Shown in pieces: positions 2,375-20,595 of a stretch of DNA of 24,232 nucleotides. Where the stretch lies: IMG/VR virus record IMGVR_UViG_3300047160_036265. One strand, 5' to 3'. The first letter of the stretch is position 1; each line of letters starts with the position of its first letter. The notes beneath the pieces were generated by a model, which was given only the letters and a program-made list of their open reading frames with translations, did not search any database and was not told the origin of the DNA. The DNA is from a virus. Made by a program: the position numbers and the translations under genes.

Positions 2375-2893
2375 CTAATTGGTGTGGAGTGTAAACAAGA
2401 AATGGTAGCCGTCTTCCCAGCCGGTGACATCCTGTTCGTCACCATTGTCAAAGCCGCCCCGAACGATGTCGTCGCATTCAAATCCCATCGCCCGGAGGAA
2501 TAACTGACCGTCCAGGTTGCTTTCCCGCACGGTCATTTCGATCATGCTGCGCTTGTGTTCGGACAGCTTGGACTTGAGATTTTTCACCATATGACGGCCA
2601 ATTGACTTACGCCGAACCTTGGGATTCACCGTCAGGTTGAGCATTTCCAGGCGGTCGGGATGAAGCTGGTAGACCACATAGGCCAGTACGGTATCCAGGC
2701 TGTCAACGCAAACCATGCCGATCCTGCCGGGGTTGAGGCGGTTGTCCAAATTACGGAGGAATTTTTGTTCGGTCCAGTGGTTCTCGCTGCTGTCTTTTTC
2801 AATAGCGACGACCTGGGGCAAATCTCTGCGGATCATCCACCGGATATGCGCCTGTACCGTTGTTTTGGTCATCTCCCTAAGCCCATATAGCAT
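2375..2893 (-). CDS. GNAT-family N-acetyltransferase
   Basis: It has a GNAT motif A-like core (LNLTVNPKVRRKSIGRHMV) in a RimI-like architecture and is about 170 aa. Confidence 0.7.
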   Translation of the reverse strand: MLYGLREMTKTTVQAHIRWMIRRDLPQVVAIEKDSSENHWTEQKFLRNLDNRLNPGRIGMVCVDSLDTVLAYVVYQLHPDRLEMLNLTVNPKVRRKSIGRHMVKNLKSKLSEHKRSMIEMTVRESNLDGQLFLRAMGFECDDIVRGGFDNGDEQDVTGWEDGYHFLFTLHTN

Positions 2894-3551
2894 CCAAGCC
2901 GATGACGGTGTTCAGTTTCTCCTCACCTTCAGGCAGCACGAGCATTTGCCGGACGCTGGCAAGGTCACGATTTTTGAAAATCACGACCCAGCCGGTTCTA
3001 TTATAAAAACTCGAAGAATCGGTCAGGTTCGGCAATCGCACATACTGCGTAAAACCGAAGAGAAACCGCTTGACGGCGAGTTCGGTCAGTCCGATATATT
3101 CCTGTGCCTGCGGCACACTCTGCTCCTTGCCGTAGAGCGAGTCCTCATAATTATCACGTTCAGGATTATACAACCTACCGCAGCGTAAAAGAATAGTAAA
3201 AAGTGAGCGGCGCATGTCGCAACCCCGCCAGAACGGCGATGGCCGAACCCACAATACGGTATCCTTGTCGGTCTTGTGATAGGAGGTCTTGTCCCAGGGA
3301 ACATGCAGGTCTTGCAGTTGTAGTATTTCCTCGGTTTTGCAGATAAAACCGGCGACGTTTTCCGCCTCGCCCTGGGCAACGGAGAAATAAAAACCTTCGA
3401 TGCTCGGCTCCCACTTCGGGGCGAACTGTTCTCGGCAGTGGTCCCAATGCGGTTGCTTGCTGGGGTCGCCCGTTTCCAAGGCAAACTGGCCGGGCGACGG
3501 CGCATTATAGACCTGCTTAAATCCCTTCTTTTGACCGAATTCCGCTCGCAT
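2877..3551 (-). CDS. hypothetical protein (224 aa)
   Basis: This is a long ATG-initiated ORF in the dominant coding strand with a 17-nt overlap onto the GNAT gene. No recognisable motif was found. Confidence 0.55.
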   Translation of the reverse strand: MRAEFGQKKGFKQVYNAPSPGQFALETGDPSKQPHWDHCREQFAPKWEPSIEGFYFSVAQGEAENVAGFICKTEEILQLQDLHVPWDKTSYHKTDKDTVLWVRPSPFWRGCDMRRSLFTILLRCGRLYNPERDNYEDSLYGKEQSVPQAQEYIGLTELAVKRFLFGFTQYVRLPNLTDSSSFYNRTGWVVIFKNRDLASVRQMLVLPEGEEKLNTVIGLDAIWA

Positions 3552-3560
3552 ATTCCCTCA

Positions 3561-4448
3561 TCAAACGCAATTAGTGTACTGAACACGGCAGTCTGACTCT
3601 ATTGTAGAGTTCTCCTTCTCCGTAATCCTCACGGTCGAGGTAAACGGGCCAGATGCCGGCTTCGATCTTCTCAGCTTATTTATTGGCGTGATATAAGGGT
3701 TGTTAAACCTCGGCGCAGAAAACGCTCGTTCCTTGTGCCTGGCACGAATATTGACGACGAGACGCAGATCGCATTCCAACGATCCTTTGAAAAACACCAA
3801 GGTGCCGCCGGGGTAAATCCCGTGCGGAAGGGACTGCATATTCTCGATGGAGGGCCGGTCGTAGCGGAAGTAGTAATATCGTTCCGCCGACTTATGGTAT
3901 TGGGCCTTTTCGGCTGGGTAGCCGGTGATGCCGGCGCTTTCGATAACCCAGCCTTGGGATTGGTGGGCGGTCCAGTCCCACTCCTGGTCGTCATCGGGGA
4001 GAACAACCTGCACAGTCTGTTGTGGCTCAATTTTCAGCGCTTGGCCGCAAGGACTTATTGCTGTGAGGAGGTTTCCACGGTTAGTTGTGCAGGCCAGGAG
4101 GACACAAAGGGAGGAGAACTGAAAGCCAACGTCAAGCCCGATCTCACCTAGCAGAACGGCGGACCAGGCACTCCAGTCGGTGTAGTCCTCCTTCTGGCGA
4201 TAGATGTGCGCAGCCCCGTTGCGCAGGTGTTCCACCCGGTCAAGTATGAGGAAGTCAGTTCTTTCGACAATATGGCAAGAGGCGTACTCGTCGGTCAGAA
4301 CAACCGCTAATTCCTGGTTAGGATATAAGCGAATCAAATGGTTGTCTGCCCGTGGGTTCCTTATCCTCACCGGAGCGTATTTCTTCATGGCTTTCAACCA
4401 ACGCCGCCAGCCACCCAGAATAGTGCTGAACCAGCGCCAAAACTTCAT
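3561..4448 (-). CDS. hypothetical protein (295 aa; alternative start at 4388)
   Basis: This is a long ORF on the coding strand. It overlaps the upstream ORF by 70–130 nt, so the start is uncertain. Confidence 0.5.
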   Translation of the reverse strand: MKFWRWFSTILGGWRRWLKAMKKYAPVRIRNPRADNHLIRLYPNQELAVVLTDEYASCHIVERTDFLILDRVEHLRNGAAHIYRQKEDYTDWSAWSAVLLGEIGLDVGFQFSSLCVLLACTTNRGNLLTAISPCGQALKIEPQQTVQVVLPDDDQEWDWTAHQSQGWVIESAGITGYPAEKAQYHKSAERYYYFRYDRPSIENMQSLPHGIYPGGTLVFFKGSLECDLRLVVNIRARHKERAFSAPRFNNPYITPINKLRRSKPASGPFTSTVRITEKENSTIESDCRVQYTNCV

Positions 4449-4983
4449 ATTTCCAAACCTTTAGCACGTTGGGATGCCTGGCGGTCAGGTAGATCAGACA
4501 GTTCTGATACCCTGCGTAGCGGTTGGCCAGGGGCAGGTCCACGTCCAGGCAACGATCCACATAATGACGCAACTCCGACTCCTGATGAGCGAACCAGCCA
4601 TCATAGCAGTAGACGAACATTTCCCACGCCGTCAGGATCACTTCCTTGCCGCCCGTCACGACGCCCGGCATACTATCCCCGTCTAACGACCGGGACCAGT
4701 TGAGGAAGTAATCCTCGTACTGGTCCCATTCCAGTTCCTTGGCATTGTATTTCTGGAAAAGCCGCTGCTTGAGGTAGCCGTTGTGAATCGGAGAGTAGAA
4801 CTCCACGACGTACTTGCCGGGATGAATGCCGCCGTCCACCCATTTGATGGTGACGAGCAACCAACTACTGTGCCAGTAAGTGGTATCCTCGGTGCGCAAT
4901 ATGAGGGCACCCATGCTGTCGTAGCGGACTAGCGGGATGTCTTTGATAGCGTGGCGCTTGAAATATTCCTCGTAAAGTCGCAT
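4318..4983 (-). CDS. hypothetical protein (221 aa)
   Basis: This is an ATG ORF on the coding strand, 16 nt downstream of the preceding gene, with no recognisable motif. Confidence 0.5.
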   Translation of the reverse strand: MRLYEEYFKRHAIKDIPLVRYDSMGALILRTEDTTYWHSSWLLVTIKWVDGGIHPGKYVVEFYSPIHNGYLKQRLFQKYNAKELEWDQYEDYFLNWSRSLDGDSMPGVVTGGKEVILTAWEMFVYCYDGWFAHQESELRHYVDRCLDVDLPLANRYAGYQNCLIYLTARHPNVLKVWKYEVLALVQHYSGWLAALVESHEEIRSGEDKEPTGRQPFDSLIS

Positions 4984-4998
4984 CGTACTATTATAAAG

Positions 4999-5232
4999 TC
5001 ACTCCTCCTTAAATTCCTCGAATTTACGGCTTTGCAGTATATCGTCACACCGGACCCAGCCGTGTGTTTCGTCATTCCAGGTCACGGGGTATTGATTGGG
5101 AAAGCCTTCGAGAATGTCGAAAAGGTCGCCCCCACTTCTCGCCCGCTCTGCACTGCGCAAGAATATAAGCGGGTGGATGTGCGGATAACGCTCCTTGAGA
5201 CTCTGAAGTACCTTGGCTTCGATCATGACCAT
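4999..5232 (-). CDS. small hypothetical protein (78 aa from internal ATG; ORF extends to 5322)
   Basis: It sits 8 nt downstream of the sigma factor gene when started at MVMIEAKV. That position suggests a sigma partner (anti-sigma), but this is conjecture. Confidence 0.4.
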   Translation of the reverse strand: MVMIEAKVLQSLKERYPHIHPLIFLRSAERARSGGDLFDILEGFPNQYPVTWNDETHGWVRCDDILQSRKFEEFKEE

Positions 5233-5239
5233 ATTATAC

Positions 5240-5752
5240 TTAGGCCACTTCCTCGTACAAACGCTCTTTCGACCACTCGCCTCGAAGCTGTTCGTAGGAT
5301 TCTCCCAAAACCTGGCAAACACGGGCCTTGCTCAACCCCATTTCCACGCCGATCTCCTCCTGAGTTTTGTCTTCCAAGAAATAACCCCGGATCACAGCTT
5401 GGCGAGGCGGGGTTAGGCCCGGCAACACCAAGCCAAACAGTTCCGGCGAGTCGGCGGAAGGTGGGGCCGAAGGCTCATATTCCAGCGTTTTATGGGCCTG
5501 GGGAGCCTGTCGGGTTCCCCAGCCCAACTCCCGGAGGTAGTCCTGAATCGCCCCGTGGATGCGTATTTTTGCGTAGCCCTCGAAATTATCGCAGCGCTCC
5601 GGTTCGTACTTGTGGGCGGCGTCCACCAGGCCGAAATAAGCAGCGGATTGCAGTTCATCTAACTGGACGCTGCGAGGCAAACCTTTCTTTTTATAACCGG
5701 CGATTTTGTTGGCGAGAGGGAGATGAGATTCGATGAGTTCATTAGTTGTCAT
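5240..5752 (-). CDS. sigma-70 family RNA polymerase sigma factor (regions 2 and 4)
   Basis: The region 2 sequence (DELQSAAYFGLVDAAHKYEP) and the region 4.2 helix-turn-helix (TQEEIGVEMGLSKARVCQV) are both recognisable. Its size (170 aa) is typical of phage, ECF or FliA-like sigma factors. Confidence 0.8.
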   Translation of the reverse strand: MTTNELIESHLPLANKIAGYKKKGLPRSVQLDELQSAAYFGLVDAAHKYEPERCDNFEGYAKIRIHGAIQDYLRELGWGTRQAPQAHKTLEYEPSAPPSADSPELFGLVLPGLTPPRQAVIRGYFLEDKTQEEIGVEMGLSKARVCQVLGESYEQLRGEWSKERLYEEVA

Positions 5753-5763
5753 ATAGTGTTCTT

Positions 5764-5855
5764 TCGTTAAAGACAGTTAAAGATCGTTTAAGATAGTGAT
5801 GACCGTGAGAAGATAGTCGCCTGCGATTACGCAAGAACTTTTTCGCTCACGGTCA
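5764..5855. promoter_or_regulatory. upstream regulatory region of the sigma gene with three tandem ~10–11 nt repeats and a 10-bp perfect inverted repeat
   Basis: Tandem repeats gttaaagacag / ttaaagatcg / tttaagatag lie at about 5766–5796. The inverted repeat is TGACCGTGAG (5800–5809) and CTCACGGTCA (5846–5855) with a 36-nt spacer. The region lies between the amidoligase stop and the sigma ATG. Confidence 0.4.
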
Positions 5856-5885
5856 ACATTATTATATAGCTCAGAAGCGCTTATT

Positions 5886-6830
5886 TCAAGCCGGCTGCGA
5901 GATGAATTTCAACATATTATTGGCCATGCTACCCCACGCCGAACCGCCGAAACGCAGGCATCGCTCCAAGAGCCAGATGCGGGTTTCGTGAAGACCGGGG
6001 CTGAAAATAAAGAAGTCCTCGTCGTGGCCAAGGCCACAGTAACGCAGGGCCTCAGCCACGTCAAGACACGGGCCTATATTTTCGGGCATGGGGCGGTCCT
6101 TGCAGTATTCCACAAGGTTGAGGAAGAAACGTATCCAGTTCTTGACATGGATGGGCAGGAACGTGCCTTCGGGCAGGCGAAGCTCAAGCGTCTTGCGACT
6201 CCAGCGCTTTCGTCGCAGCCCGGTAGCGTAATTCATGAAGTTGACGGCGACCCGCCGCTCCGGGTTTTCAAAAACGCAGATGTCCGCCGGGCATACCAGT
6301 TCCCACATCTCAAGGGCGGTATATCGGCCCTCCCGACTATCCAGGGGGAACACGCTGCGCAATGACCGGCAATAGGGGTTGCTGCTGCGATGGCGGGGCA
6401 CACAACCGAACAGAAAAGGCTCGATCTTGAGCCAGTGGGCGGCAAAAACCCCGACCTGAGCAGGTACAAAGTCGCTCACGTCGGCGTGGACGTGCAGGCC
6501 GCAGTTTTCATTGACCTGGACCCCATATTCATTCAACCGGCAGGCAACCTCGGAAATGTGAAAAATATCTGCCAGGCCGGCTGCCTTGTACGAGGCTACC
6601 TCGTAACCGTGGTCCAAACCCTTTCCCTTGGGACCGCAGGTGGAATCCGTCTTGATGTGCCAATGGCGGTTGCCGTGCGTTTGCCCCCAATCGGTAACTA
6701 CGGCGCTCCGGTGCGAATGCTTGATGACCACGCTCCATATTTCATGGCGAGTGATCGTATTACTGGCCTCAAGCTCTACCCCGAAAGGTCGAACCGAATC
6801 GAACTTCCGATATTTGGTCCCTCGGTACAT
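5886..6830 (-). CDS. amidoligase-family enzyme (putative amidoligase, glutamine-synthetase-like fold)
   Basis: The N-terminal FGVELE, the central WHIKTDSTCGP..GYEVAS and the CGLHVHADV motif match the Amidoligase_2 pattern. Confidence 0.65.
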   Translation of the reverse strand: MYRGTKYRKFDSVRPFGVELEASNTITRHEIWSVVIKHSHRSAVVTDWGQTHGNRHWHIKTDSTCGPKGKGLDHGYEVASYKAAGLADIFHISEVACRLNEYGVQVNENCGLHVHADVSDFVPAQVGVFAAHWLKIEPFLFGCVPRHRSSNPYCRSLRSVFPLDSREGRYTALEMWELVCPADICVFENPERRVAVNFMNYATGLRRKRWSRKTLELRLPEGTFLPIHVKNWIRFFLNLVEYCKDRPMPENIGPCLDVAEALRYCGLGHDEDFFIFSPGLHETRIWLLERCLRFGGSAWGSMANNMLKFISQPA

Positions 6831-18860: not shown

Positions 18861-20069
18861 TCACGCCCAATAACCTATGAAATAGCACTTGCCGTCTTTC
18901 TCGCCCACGATAACAGGAGTGATACACCGTTTCTTTATAAGAGTTAGGTCCAACGCTTTCTTGGCCTCCTCGATGCTATCGAAAGACAAGATGTTTCCGT
19001 TATCGTCCACGAACCGTGGGTCTTTCTTGGGATACGCCACGCCCGGCACAATGACGCCATAATGGTCAAACACCGGCTTGCCATTGGCATCCGGGAAGTT
19101 TTCCGTCAGGTCGATAATTTCCTTCACCGTCTGGGAAGCGGCAGGCCAGAACTCATGGAGGGGGTACACGCGAGGTTCATAGAGCAAGGGCGTGGGTTCG
19201 GGGTGCCGCAACACCAAGCCGCCACCCTCGACAAAGAAGTTGTATCCCTTGAAGTGACGAGGTTCGACCACAATACGATATTCCCTGGCGTTGGAGAACT
19301 CGGCCAGCAAAAATGGCTGGTGCATATTGTAGTCCAGGCTCTTGGCCAATATGACCGCTGCACTCGTCATTGTCACCCGGTTAAAGCCATAATAGCTCTC
19401 GTCCACCTGCTGGCGGAAGGCTTCCACCGTCTTCATGATTTCGGAGTGCATGTCGGTGAGGCCCAGGTCCAGATAACGCTTGGCCTTCTTCTCGACCCTC
19501 GCCAGTTCATCCTGGTACGCCATGTCGTAGCGGATGAACTTACTGAAGCTGGAGGGTTGTGCGGACCAGACCTCATCACCCTTCTTGCACAGGCTCCGCA
19601 GGTCAATACATTGCATTCGCTTCCTGTTACGAACCTTCTCCCGGTCTTCGGGGGCCTTGAGAAAGCGGACGTGCAGGCGATTGACGAAGGGGCTGTCGAT
19701 GCGGCGCAGAACGTCCTTGGGCAGTTCTTTGGATAAGACCTTCCAGAGAAAAGGCCCAACGGAGTTATAACGCTCGCGTTCGCAATACTCGGCCACCACC
19801 AGCAACTCCTCGCACTCGTTGGCGAAAGCGCTATCAAAGGCCAGCCAACCGTCAAAGGCGGTTCCCAGGTCAGGGTGGGTGAAATCCACCACCGTGGTGA
19901 AAGCGTGCAACTTGCCGAACAGGGAACCCAGGGCGTGTTCGCCCCGTTCCTCCGGGCAGGCCGCTATCGCAGCCATAACCCGATGGGCTTCTTTTGATGG
20001 CACTGCGCCCTCGCGTCTCGTACCAAGCCTCCTGAGTATTTCCTTGTTAAGCTCCCTTGCATCGTCCAT
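18861..20069 (-). CDS. hypothetical protein (402 aa)
   Basis: This long ATG ORF overlaps the IF3 stop by 23 nt and has no recognisable motif. Confidence 0.55.
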   Translation of the reverse strand: MDDARELNKEILRRLGTRREGAVPSKEAHRVMAAIAACPEERGEHALGSLFGKLHAFTTVVDFTHPDLGTAFDGWLAFDSAFANECEELLVVAEYCERERYNSVGPFLWKVLSKELPKDVLRRIDSPFVNRLHVRFLKAPEDREKVRNRKRMQCIDLRSLCKKGDEVWSAQPSSFSKFIRYDMAYQDELARVEKKAKRYLDLGLTDMHSEIMKTVEAFRQQVDESYYGFNRVTMTSAAVILAKSLDYNMHQPFLLAEFSNAREYRIVVEPRHFKGYNFFVEGGGLVLRHPEPTPLLYEPRVYPLHEFWPAASQTVKEIIDLTENFPDANGKPVFDHYGVIVPGVAYPKKDPRFVDDNGNILSFDSIEEAKKALDLTLIKKRCITPVIVGEKDGKCYFIGYWA

Positions 20070-20595
20070 TTTCTACTTCCTGCCTCGGTATTATACGACA
20101 GACCAACTTGTTCCCTTCTATTTTAGGCGGGCGTTCTGCCGCAGCTATGTCCTTCAGGTCAGCCAATATCTTATTGACGACGTTAAACCCCTGTTCCTTG
20201 TGGGCAATTTCCCGATTCTTATATTGCAAATTCAACTGGACCAGATTGCCCTTTTCCAAGAAAGCACGCGCCGCCTTGGACTTGGTTTGAATATCATGGT
20301 CGGCAATCGCAGGCCGCAGACGAATCTCCTTGATCTGCACGCTCGCCTCACGCTGTTTGCGTTCCTGTTCCTTCCGCTTTATCTTCTGTTCGTATCTAAA
20401 CTTGCCATAGTCCATAATGGAACAGACCGGGGGGTTGGCGTGGGCAGCGATCTCCACCAAGTCGAGGCCCGCATCCTGCGCTATCCTTCGTGCTTTGTCA
20501 ATGGGCATAATACCAAGTTGGTTGCCGTCTTGTGTTACCCGAACGACGGCGGCACGAATTTGGAAATTCACACGGGCATATTTATTCTGTTGCAT
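20047..20595 (-). CDS. infC: translation initiation factor IF-3
   Basis: The N-domain (RVNFQIRAAVVRVTQDGNQLGI…AQDAGLDLVEIAA.ANPPVCSIMDYGKFRYEQ) and the C-domain (IKEIRLRPAIADHDIQTK…FLEKGN.V…REIAHKEQG) match bacterial IF3 along its length. Its ATG overlaps the decarboxylase stop (TAATG). Confidence 0.85.
   Translation of the reverse strand: MQQNKYARVNFQIRAAVVRVTQDGNQLGIMPIDKARRIAQDAGLDLVEIAAHANPPVCSIMDYGKFRYEQKIKRKEQERKQREASVQIKEIRLRPAIADHDIQTKSKAARAFLEKGNLVQLNLQYKNREIAHKEQGFNVVNKILADLKDIAAAERPPKIEGNKLVCRIIPRQEVENGRCKGA

Follow-up and report, generated by a model that had tools for sequence, protein, structure and literature searches.

A candidate promoter and repeat-bearing mRNA leader in front of a huge-phage sigma factor gene

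A compact set of direct and inverted repeats lies immediately upstream of a sigma factor gene in a 24,232-nt viral stretch, IMG/VR record IMGVR_UViG_3300047160_036265, which we analysed at its full length and call the window. We interpret this region as the promoter and 5' untranslated leader of the sigma gene, working at the RNA level as a translational leader in an enhancer or an operator variant, and we put the probability of this reading at roughly 0.5. Judged from its sequence, the leader probably controls the amount of sigma made. An earlier inspection of the letters alone (the sequence-only reading) had proposed an organised regulatory region before the sigma gene, and that proposal holds up, as the arrangement is conserved in relatives.

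The anatomy of the region is given below. The minus strand carries nearly all of the window's genes, the sigma gene and all leader features included.

5886-6830, minus strand: gene of the Amidoligase_2 family, upstream of the sigma gene and a conserved neighbour
5884..5889, minus strand: -35 hexamer TTGAAA of a sigma-70-type promoter, overlapping the amidoligase stop codon TGA (5888-5886)
5861..5869, minus strand: -10 element TATAAT (5866-5861) in the conserved block CTATATAAT, from a promoter scan
5801..5854, minus strand: predicted 5'-terminal RNA stem-loop, with an outer 9-bp stem (5854-5846 with 5809-5801) and an inner hairpin (5839-5815)
5811..5817, minus strand: extra repeat core ACTATCT, within the 3' half of the stem-loop
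5766..5797, minus strand: three tandem 10-nt units, ACTATCTTAA / ACGATCTTTA / ACTGTCTTTA(AC), with cores ACKNTCT, predicted unstructured
5753..5765, minus strand: weak Shine-Dalgarno-like GAAAGAA (5765-5759), then a truncated core ACTAT (5757-5753) adjoining the ATG
5240-5752, minus strand: sigma factor gene of 170 amino acids (aa), ATG at 5752-5750, with regions 2 and 4, FliA/WhiG-like

From 5890 to 5750 the minus strand thus reads cTTGAAAtaagcgcttctgagcTATATAATaatgt TGACCGTGAG cgaaaaagttcttgcgtaatcgcaggcgactatctt CTCACGGTCA tc ACTATCTTAA ACGATCTTTA ACTGTCTTTA ACGAAAGAAC ACTAT ATG, and the spacer between the amidoligase and sigma genes measures 133 bp (5753-5885). A 178-nt leader stretch is identical in two independent assemblies (L001 and L002; L-numbers denote comparison loci), so the leader is no assembly artefact. 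Close DNA relatives were absent from deposited phages, and single-protein scans of viral contigs were also empty. Protein searches and a profile scan, the only routes by which relatives were found, yielded six related soil-metagenome lineages whose sigma proteins are 78, 62, 62, 59, 58 and 55% identical to that of the window. With the window itself, these form the close clade of seven sequences.

The sequence-only reading had overlooked the promoter. The scan identified TTGAAA-17-TATAAT at 5889-5861, with 11 of 12 consensus matches and a 17-nt spacer, and the exact arrangement TTGAAA-N17-TATAAT occurs a single time in the window. All seven clade sequences have the block TATATAAT unchanged, and in six of them a C precedes it; TTGAAA/C/T stands 17 nt upstream of the block in five of the six related lineages. 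As the best explanation of these sequences, host RNA polymerase with its primary sigma would use the 5889-5861 promoter. Transcription is then predicted to start near G5854, 7 nt past the -10 element and at the second base of the inverted repeat's left arm. Two other candidates were rejected: a second promoter from TTGACC at the start of the hairpin, for which no acceptable -10 element was seen by eye at 16-18 nt, and an antisense sigma-28-type promoter inside the repeats, whose spacing does not fit. Among the comparison loci, L027, L034, L051 and L065, members of one sub-lineage, seem to have replaced the sigma-70-like promoter, 35-75 nt upstream of the sigma start, with TAAA-N16-18-CGATAT, which we take to resemble the sigma-28/sigma-D promoter consensus. 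Paired with a FliA-like phage sigma, this element may mean that sigma activates its own gene or that the host flagellar sigma is used.

Given where the promoter lies, the inverted repeat is predicted to be a stem-loop at the 5' end of the RNA and not a palindromic operator. As the sequence-only reading had described, it is perfect over 10 bp and separated by 36 nt, with TGACCGTGAG at 5800-5809 (plus strand) and its exact complement at 5846-5855; a repeat finder extends the arms to 17 nt at 88% complementarity. Folding the minus-strand RNA, a check proposed with that reading, gave a stable structure: 5854-5750 folds at -29.7 kcal/mol (z = -4.8), and its first helix, 5854-5801, at -25.4 kcal/mol, beginning at the predicted +1, a start placed from the promoter alone. 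When other copies of the arms were sought in the window, these two 10-mers were the only exact ones. Five one-mismatch copies of TGACCGTGAG, at 1705, 2296, 2526, 3628 and 11775, lie in coding regions. Allowing up to one mismatch, the matches number seven in all versus 1.46 expected from shuffles, and the one-mismatch copies are probably an effect of composition or codon use, not a signal.

Within the close clade, the hairpin keeps its place and not its sequence. A 5' helix is present in all seven sequences (-7 to -25 kcal/mol), and it begins at the predicted +1 in five (the window, L020, L021, L022 and L014) and near +1 in L019, while about 10 unpaired nt precede it in L023. At least four unrelated stem sequences occur among the seven. 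The 5' arm of the window is shared by L020 and L019, whose 3' arms are TTCACGGTCA and CTTGCGGTCA. Three substitutions distinguish these 3' arms, and each would leave a G-U pair in the sense strand but an A-C mismatch in the opposite strand. The stem of L021 is perfect and unrelated, GCUGACGGA...UCCGUCAGC, and the remaining stems are GGUCC...GGGCC in L014 and L022 and GGCC-UCCG-GGCC in L023. Stem-loops at the 5' end stabilise bacterial and phage mRNAs such as ompA and the T7 late mRNAs. The leader resembles these in having a stable helix 0-2 nt from the predicted 5' end whose place is kept while its sequence is not; it differs in that its 5' end is a prediction and in the unpaired nucleotides that come first in L023. 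A 10-codon mini-open reading frame, ATG TTG ACC GTG AGC GAA AAA GTT CTT GCG TAA (5827-5859, minus strand), overlaps the 5' half of the hairpin and runs to 37 codons in L003. It was considered as a leader peptide and dropped; it starts upstream of the predicted +1 and is absent in L020 (AACGTTG). A search of Rfam 15 returned no match to E = 10 in 5600-6000 and none at the gathering score in the whole window.

A stable hairpin between promoter and gene might instead be an intrinsic terminator or attenuator, with the repeats forming an alternative antiterminator structure, and a U-rich stretch does follow the stem in L023. The sequence-only reading had offered a terminator-antiterminator among its possibilities. 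In the window, however, the stem is followed by UCACUAUCUU and not by a U-run, a terminator scan gave no site anywhere in the spacer, and a hairpin at the predicted +1 is too early to serve this purpose. The rest of the leader folds at about -2.6 kcal/mol, leaving no competing structure in evidence. The sequence thus appears largely to refute a terminator or attenuator already, and we consider one highly improbable.

Following the hairpin, the predicted transcript runs through an unstructured repeat tract to the ribosome-binding site. The three repeats of about 10 nt, described earlier as lying 12-45 nt upstream of the sigma ATG, were recovered by Tandem Repeats Finder as a tandem repeat at 5764-5794 (period 10, 3.1 copies, 76% matches); the units ACTATCTTAA / ACGATCTTTA / ACTGTCTTTA cover 5797-5768 on the minus strand. 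The string UCUUUAAC occurs twice in the tract (5783-5776 and 5773-5766), and the repeat finder reports a pair of AAGATAGT 20 nt apart. On both strands of the window ACTNTCT has six matches, three of them inside these 41 nt, and two of the three copies of TTAAAGA lie in the repeat tract. Over its 48 nt, the post-hairpin tract contains 8% G and 21% C and folds at -2.6 kcal/mol. Neighbouring genes have ribosome sites of the GGAG/AAGG type, whereas the sigma gene lacks such a site. A generic ribosome-site signal was therefore rejected as the meaning of the repeats, since the neighbours use their GGAG/AAGG-type sites without them.

The judgement that this organisation exceeds chance was borne out when the 133-bp spacer was shuffled 2000 times with its dinucleotides preserved. 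Of the shuffled sequences, 12 had a perfect inverted repeat of at least 10, one reached the observed tandem score, and none combined the two.

The same design recurs in the six related lineages, which share the gene order amidoligase, spacer, sigma, 77-aa protein and 221-aa protein. Their spacers are not alignable throughout, yet the layout of the window is kept despite this turnover of sequence: a promoter, a hairpin directly after it, three to five ACTNTCT-type units at a spacing of 9-10 nt, ACG..GGAA(C) and the start codon. Unit homologues are present in all six lineages, and the last unit often adjoins the ATG, as ACTATCT-ATG or ACTTTCT-ATG. In the six of seven clade sequences where the minimum-energy fold isolates the helix, the tract after the hairpin measures 39-56 nt, folds at -0.2 to -2.6 kcal/mol and contains 7-11% G and about 20% C.

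Looking further afield, we scanned with a sigma profile, found 116 more loci and used 54 non-redundant leaders, each covering 80 nt upstream of the start codon, with 188 regions lying upstream of neighbouring genes as controls. The 54 leaders, most of which come from huge-phage contigs, carry two to six same-strand units with the core (T)TAACT. TAACT has 98 copies in 45 of the 54 and is 26 times denser than in the controls; TAAC averages 2.8 per leader versus 0.2 per control region, and its reverse complement GTTA is not enriched, so the signal is strand-specific. Dinucleotide shuffles gave 64.5 +/- 7.2 TAAC where 151 were observed, and 32.6 TAACT against the 98. On average a leader contains 6.7 repeated 6-mers; the figure is 3.3 for shuffles and 1.5 for other intergenic regions of LR756511.1, a complete 595-kb genome. 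Some lineages have other units, namely GACTACTACC, present four times in L045, and CCACTAAAAA in L028. The repeats are thus kept in related phages, and their positional bias is strong: unit copies peak between -45 and -20 and recur at -8 to -4 and at +5, and G content falls to 3-8% between -50 and -11. ACT makes up 60% of the threonine codons at codons 2-5, compared with 32% in the remaining gene. The span so marked is roughly the stretch of mRNA in contact with a 30S subunit during initiation. The copies also favour one side of the promoter: the 12 leaders with a promoter of at least 10/12 hold 50 copies downstream of the -10 element (814 nt) and two upstream of the -35 (1242 nt). Spacing between TAAC units is variable, mostly 8-10 nt with a minimum of 4, a variation more readily accommodated by a flexible single strand than by an array of phased DNA sites.

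Gene specificity was apparent at the scale of genomes. Across 672 kb around 37 sigma genes there are six clusters of at least four TAAC in 60 nt, three of which are sigma leaders. LR756511.1 has 16 G-poor clusters of at least three TAAC, and two of them are followed by a Shine-Dalgarno-like sequence and a start codon: the sigma leader and a cluster at ~279829, whose "start" is a TTG without a credible gene behind it. The 392 other upstream regions of this genome show no enrichment of TAACT. In having this arrangement the sigma gene stands essentially alone in the complete 595-kb genome. Across viruses, TAACTTT arrays are not unique to sigma leaders; they occur at 120 or more viral-contig loci, none with a sigma homologue among the matches listed, a count that is no measure of specificity. 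Among these unrelated phages, the IMG/VR loci L190, L198, L205, L219 and L222 have GTAACTTT arrays, direct and inverted, around promoter-like TATATA stretches. These arrays look like operators or iterons for a DNA-binding protein.

The conservation also bears on whether the repeats have a function at all. Slippage could have produced duplications that a spacer tolerates, and the lineage-specific units do suggest repeated local duplication. Against this, the tract is kept across sigma homologues down to ~35% identity and in many environments, it holds a fixed place relative to the start codon, and chance is excluded at about 1 in 2000 within the window. The alternative of replication iterons, echoed in the label "iteron-like" given earlier to the repeats, fits no better: the units are 10 nt long, share one orientation and lie inside the predicted transcribed leader, whereas iteron repeats are ~17-22 bp and stand at an origin, beside an initiator gene or an A+T-rich unwinding region; nothing replication-related was identified in the window; and the GC skew shows no switch here. 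We judge both functionless repeats and iterons very improbable and find the label unsupported.

A DNA operator would be a different matter. Between promoter and gene, the direct repeats could bind a phage protein, either the FliA-like sigma through its region 4 or another regulator, that modulates or blocks transcription and so brings about autoregulation or early-gene shut-off. The ~10-bp period in the window's clade is what such a site might show, and the array is gene-specific, with sigma the only protein guaranteed to co-occur with it. The core sequence is kept while its flanks vary, and the unit differs by lineage (ACTNTCT, TAACT, GACTACTACC, CCACTAAAAA), as expected from co-evolution with a phage-encoded binder. 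Inverted copies within the TAACTTT arrays of other viral contigs are typical of DNA sites, and what we take to be the sigma-28 -35 box, TAAAGTTT, resembles the family unit TAAACTTT/TTAACTTT. Other features of the family disagree with this picture. The spacing of 4 to more than 10 nt, most often 8, places copies out of helical phase; copies are strictly in a single orientation, sit downstream of the -10 element and extend through the Shine-Dalgarno spacer into codons 2-5. The candidate phage promoter motif of LR756511.1, AGCTGTAC, is also unlike the repeats. On balance, we consider a DNA operator doubtful.

The repeats also invite comparison with BoxA elements. Two BoxA-like units, the two copies of UCUUUAAC, behind a BoxB-like hairpin could form a nut/rrn-type site that loads host NusB/NusE. 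Its effect would be either a termination-resistant polymerase for a long operon or, as in suhB, repression of translation with Rho termination in the G-poor leader. In rrn leaders a promoter is followed by a hairpin and then by a BoxA-like element; the same order here counts in favour of this possibility, as does the fact that the downstream genes are all on the same strand. Like the BoxA of rrn, lambda nut and suhB, UCUUUAAC stands in leader RNA just past the promoter and next to a hairpin, and it equals the core of the consensus GYTCTTTAANA (PMC5725501). The best unit agrees with it at 9 of 11 positions, among them the critical C4 and T6. The BoxA in the suhB 5' untranslated region represses translation and overlaps a G-poor rut site (PMC5725501). 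Rut sites are unstructured tracts of roughly 60-80 nt in which C exceeds G; the tract here, unstructured over 48 nt with 8% G and 21% C, falls below the usual length and is richer in A/U. The element differs from BoxA in being tandem, in falling short of GYTCTTTAANA and in not being kept as BoxA in relatives or in the family. A match of at least 9/11 arises in 8.4% of composition-matched shuffles and is not significant, and the middle unit of L020 and L021 has a T at C4, a change that inactivates the suhB BoxA (PMC5725501). Family-wide there is no CUCUU signal upstream of TAAC, and the 12-mer GCTCTTTAACAA is unmatched within two mismatches in all 54 leaders. Finally, the repeats adjoin the Shine-Dalgarno sequence and the AUG, a location that an antitermination site does not need. 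A BoxA function is accordingly improbable in our view.

We favour a leader that acts on translation. Host polymerase with its primary sigma would initiate at the near-consensus promoter, 5889-5861, and the 5' end of the transcript would be the inverted repeat folded as a stem-loop, which, by analogy with known stabilising stem-loops, may shield the message from 5'-end-dependent decay. The ~48-nt single-stranded, G-poor tract of ACU cores, continuing through the weak Shine-Dalgarno sequence to the AUG, would then provide a platform at the ribosome-binding site. The direction of its effect could be either of two. The platform might, like the T7 gene 10 leader, serve as an enhancer or a standby site that recruits 30S subunits and so offsets the weak Shine-Dalgarno sequence; or a sequence-specific factor might bind the repeats and tune or shut off sigma translation.

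By analogy, the closest known system is the T7 gene 10 leader, and we expect the sigma leader to work like it without being a member of the same family. In its predicted form the sigma leader has the T7 order of phage promoter, 5'-terminal stem-loop, unstructured A/U-rich tract, Shine-Dalgarno and AUG. The T7 leader has enhancer properties (PMC8748333), and when checked against T7 its sequence contains the 9-nt "epsilon" enhancer UUAACUUUA. How that enhancer works is unsettled, pairing with 16S rRNA being disfavoured and ribosomal protein S1 having been proposed (PMC8748333). The family unit, (U)UAACU(UU), resembles it: exact TTAACTTTA occurs in 5 of the 54 leaders and in none of the 188 controls, and 18 leaders have it with up to one mismatch. 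There are also differences. T7 has one enhancer copy where these leaders have three to six, the window units ACUNUCUUWA match UUAACUUUA at 7/9 at best, and the T7 leader serves a major capsid gene, whereas here the gene encodes a regulatory protein. Pairing of the repeats with 16S rRNA was considered here and dropped, as nothing was consistent across lineages.

Two further systems share parts of the design. Operators of the T4 gene 32 and RegA type are unstructured tracts, and gene 32 protein binds its tract cooperatively. The omega leader of tobacco mosaic virus is G-free, contains direct repeats and is an enhancer that needs no Shine-Dalgarno sequence. As in the sigma leader, a 5' structure is followed by an unstructured, repeat-bearing, G-poor tract that reaches the start codon; the repeat sequences differ, and the gene here encodes a sigma factor, not a single-strand-binding protein.

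Several observations weigh against a translational leader, or at least against a generic one. The transcription start is a prediction from the promoter, and G-depletion and strand bias follow in part from the composition of the unit, so that they are no independent proof of an RNA role. The window units reach only 7/9 positions of the T7 enhancer, and the TAACTTT arrays of unrelated viral contigs, some in both orientations, look like DNA-level sites. The array is specific to the sigma gene, whereas an enhancer of general use should also be present before other highly expressed genes. Conservation of the core (ACKNTCT here, UAACU elsewhere) goes beyond composition to the sequence itself, which points to a specific partner. 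Because the core is conserved and the array is restricted to the sigma gene, we lean towards such a putative partner over mere A/U-richness.

Taken a step further, the same-strand ACU/UAACU array could be an undescribed cis-regulatory element dedicated to the sigma genes of a wide huge-phage lineage, read by a phage factor as a conserved operator, translational or autoregulatory, and timing the switch from host to phage transcription. This is a tentative idea that we think possible and not yet probable. Candidate readers of the array are sigma itself, the 77-aa neighbour and a translation factor such as IF-3. Searches of the literature turned up no published description of a repeat leader of huge-phage sigma genes, and searching by sequence string returned vectors and barcodes only.

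The sigma protein has Pfam matches to Sigma70_r2 (3e-10) and Sigma70_r4 (2e-9). Its region 2 is nearest to FliA/WhiG, and domain searches of the 170-aa protein gave no match for region 3. Because a 669,797-bp contig encodes the identical sigma protein, and homologues lie on contigs of 120-510 kb and on the 595-kb LR756511.1, the window belongs to a huge phage. Comparative genomics indicates that this lineage of huge phages lacks an RNA polymerase and depends on the encoded sigma to redirect the host enzyme (PMC7824862). Since sigma recruits the host polymerase in these phages, control of the sigma gene decides the infection programme. Conserved in phages of soil, lake and sediment and essentially confined to one gene, the leader offers a testable handle on the sigma switch. 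In genomes of uncultivated phages it could also serve to mark where the sigma gene truly starts and where an early promoter lies. As a candidate family of G-poor repeat leaders without an Rfam match, such sequences are perhaps useful as expression elements. Were the element an ordinary leader of the enhancer type, it would be a well-documented but unsurprising regulatory region.

Around the sigma gene, a conserved module at 2877-6830 (minus strand), seen in L018-L171, encodes the amidoligase, sigma and proteins of 77, 221, 295 and 224 aa. By tblastn, the 77-aa protein is found at 94 loci, the amidoligase at 80 and the 221-aa protein at 68. The gene for the 77-aa protein (4999-5232, minus strand) lies directly downstream of sigma, and its product has no Pfam, PHROG or NCBIfam match. 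Its family-wide identity is 40-55%, versus ~35-42% for sigma, and it is thus the better kept of the two. We regard this protein as a candidate sigma partner, anti-sigma factor or binder of the repeats. Other genes in the window encode PhoH, dUTPase, dCMP deaminase, a lectin-fold virion protein and IF-3. The IF-3 gene is full-length (20047-20595, minus strand), matching the NCBIfam infC equivalog at E 6e-51 and PHROG "translation initiation factor"; a phage IF-3 could matter if initiation machinery modified by the phage reads the sigma leader.

LR756511.1 (assembled from L135 and L172-L183) has further repeat-like features. The cluster at ~279829 (plus strand), which corresponds to L135 40340-40375 (minus strand), is TAAC-rich and G-poor, reads TCTTTAACTTTTAACTTTTAAC...AACTTTAACTTTTAAGG and sits beyond the hairpin terminator of a gene for a small lysine-rich protein. 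A second TAAC-rich, G-poor cluster, at ~499514 (minus strand), contains CGATAT. Strand-specific (t/a)aaAGCTGTACtaa lies 15-70 nt upstream of ~35 gene starts, for example at positions 3688, 6435, 8855 and 11634; many copies cluster within the initial 17 kb and have a common leader, ggttatctctaacggagga, behind them. The (t/a)aaAGCTGTACtaa sequences, which have no relation to the TAAC repeats, probably represent a class of promoters specific to the phage.

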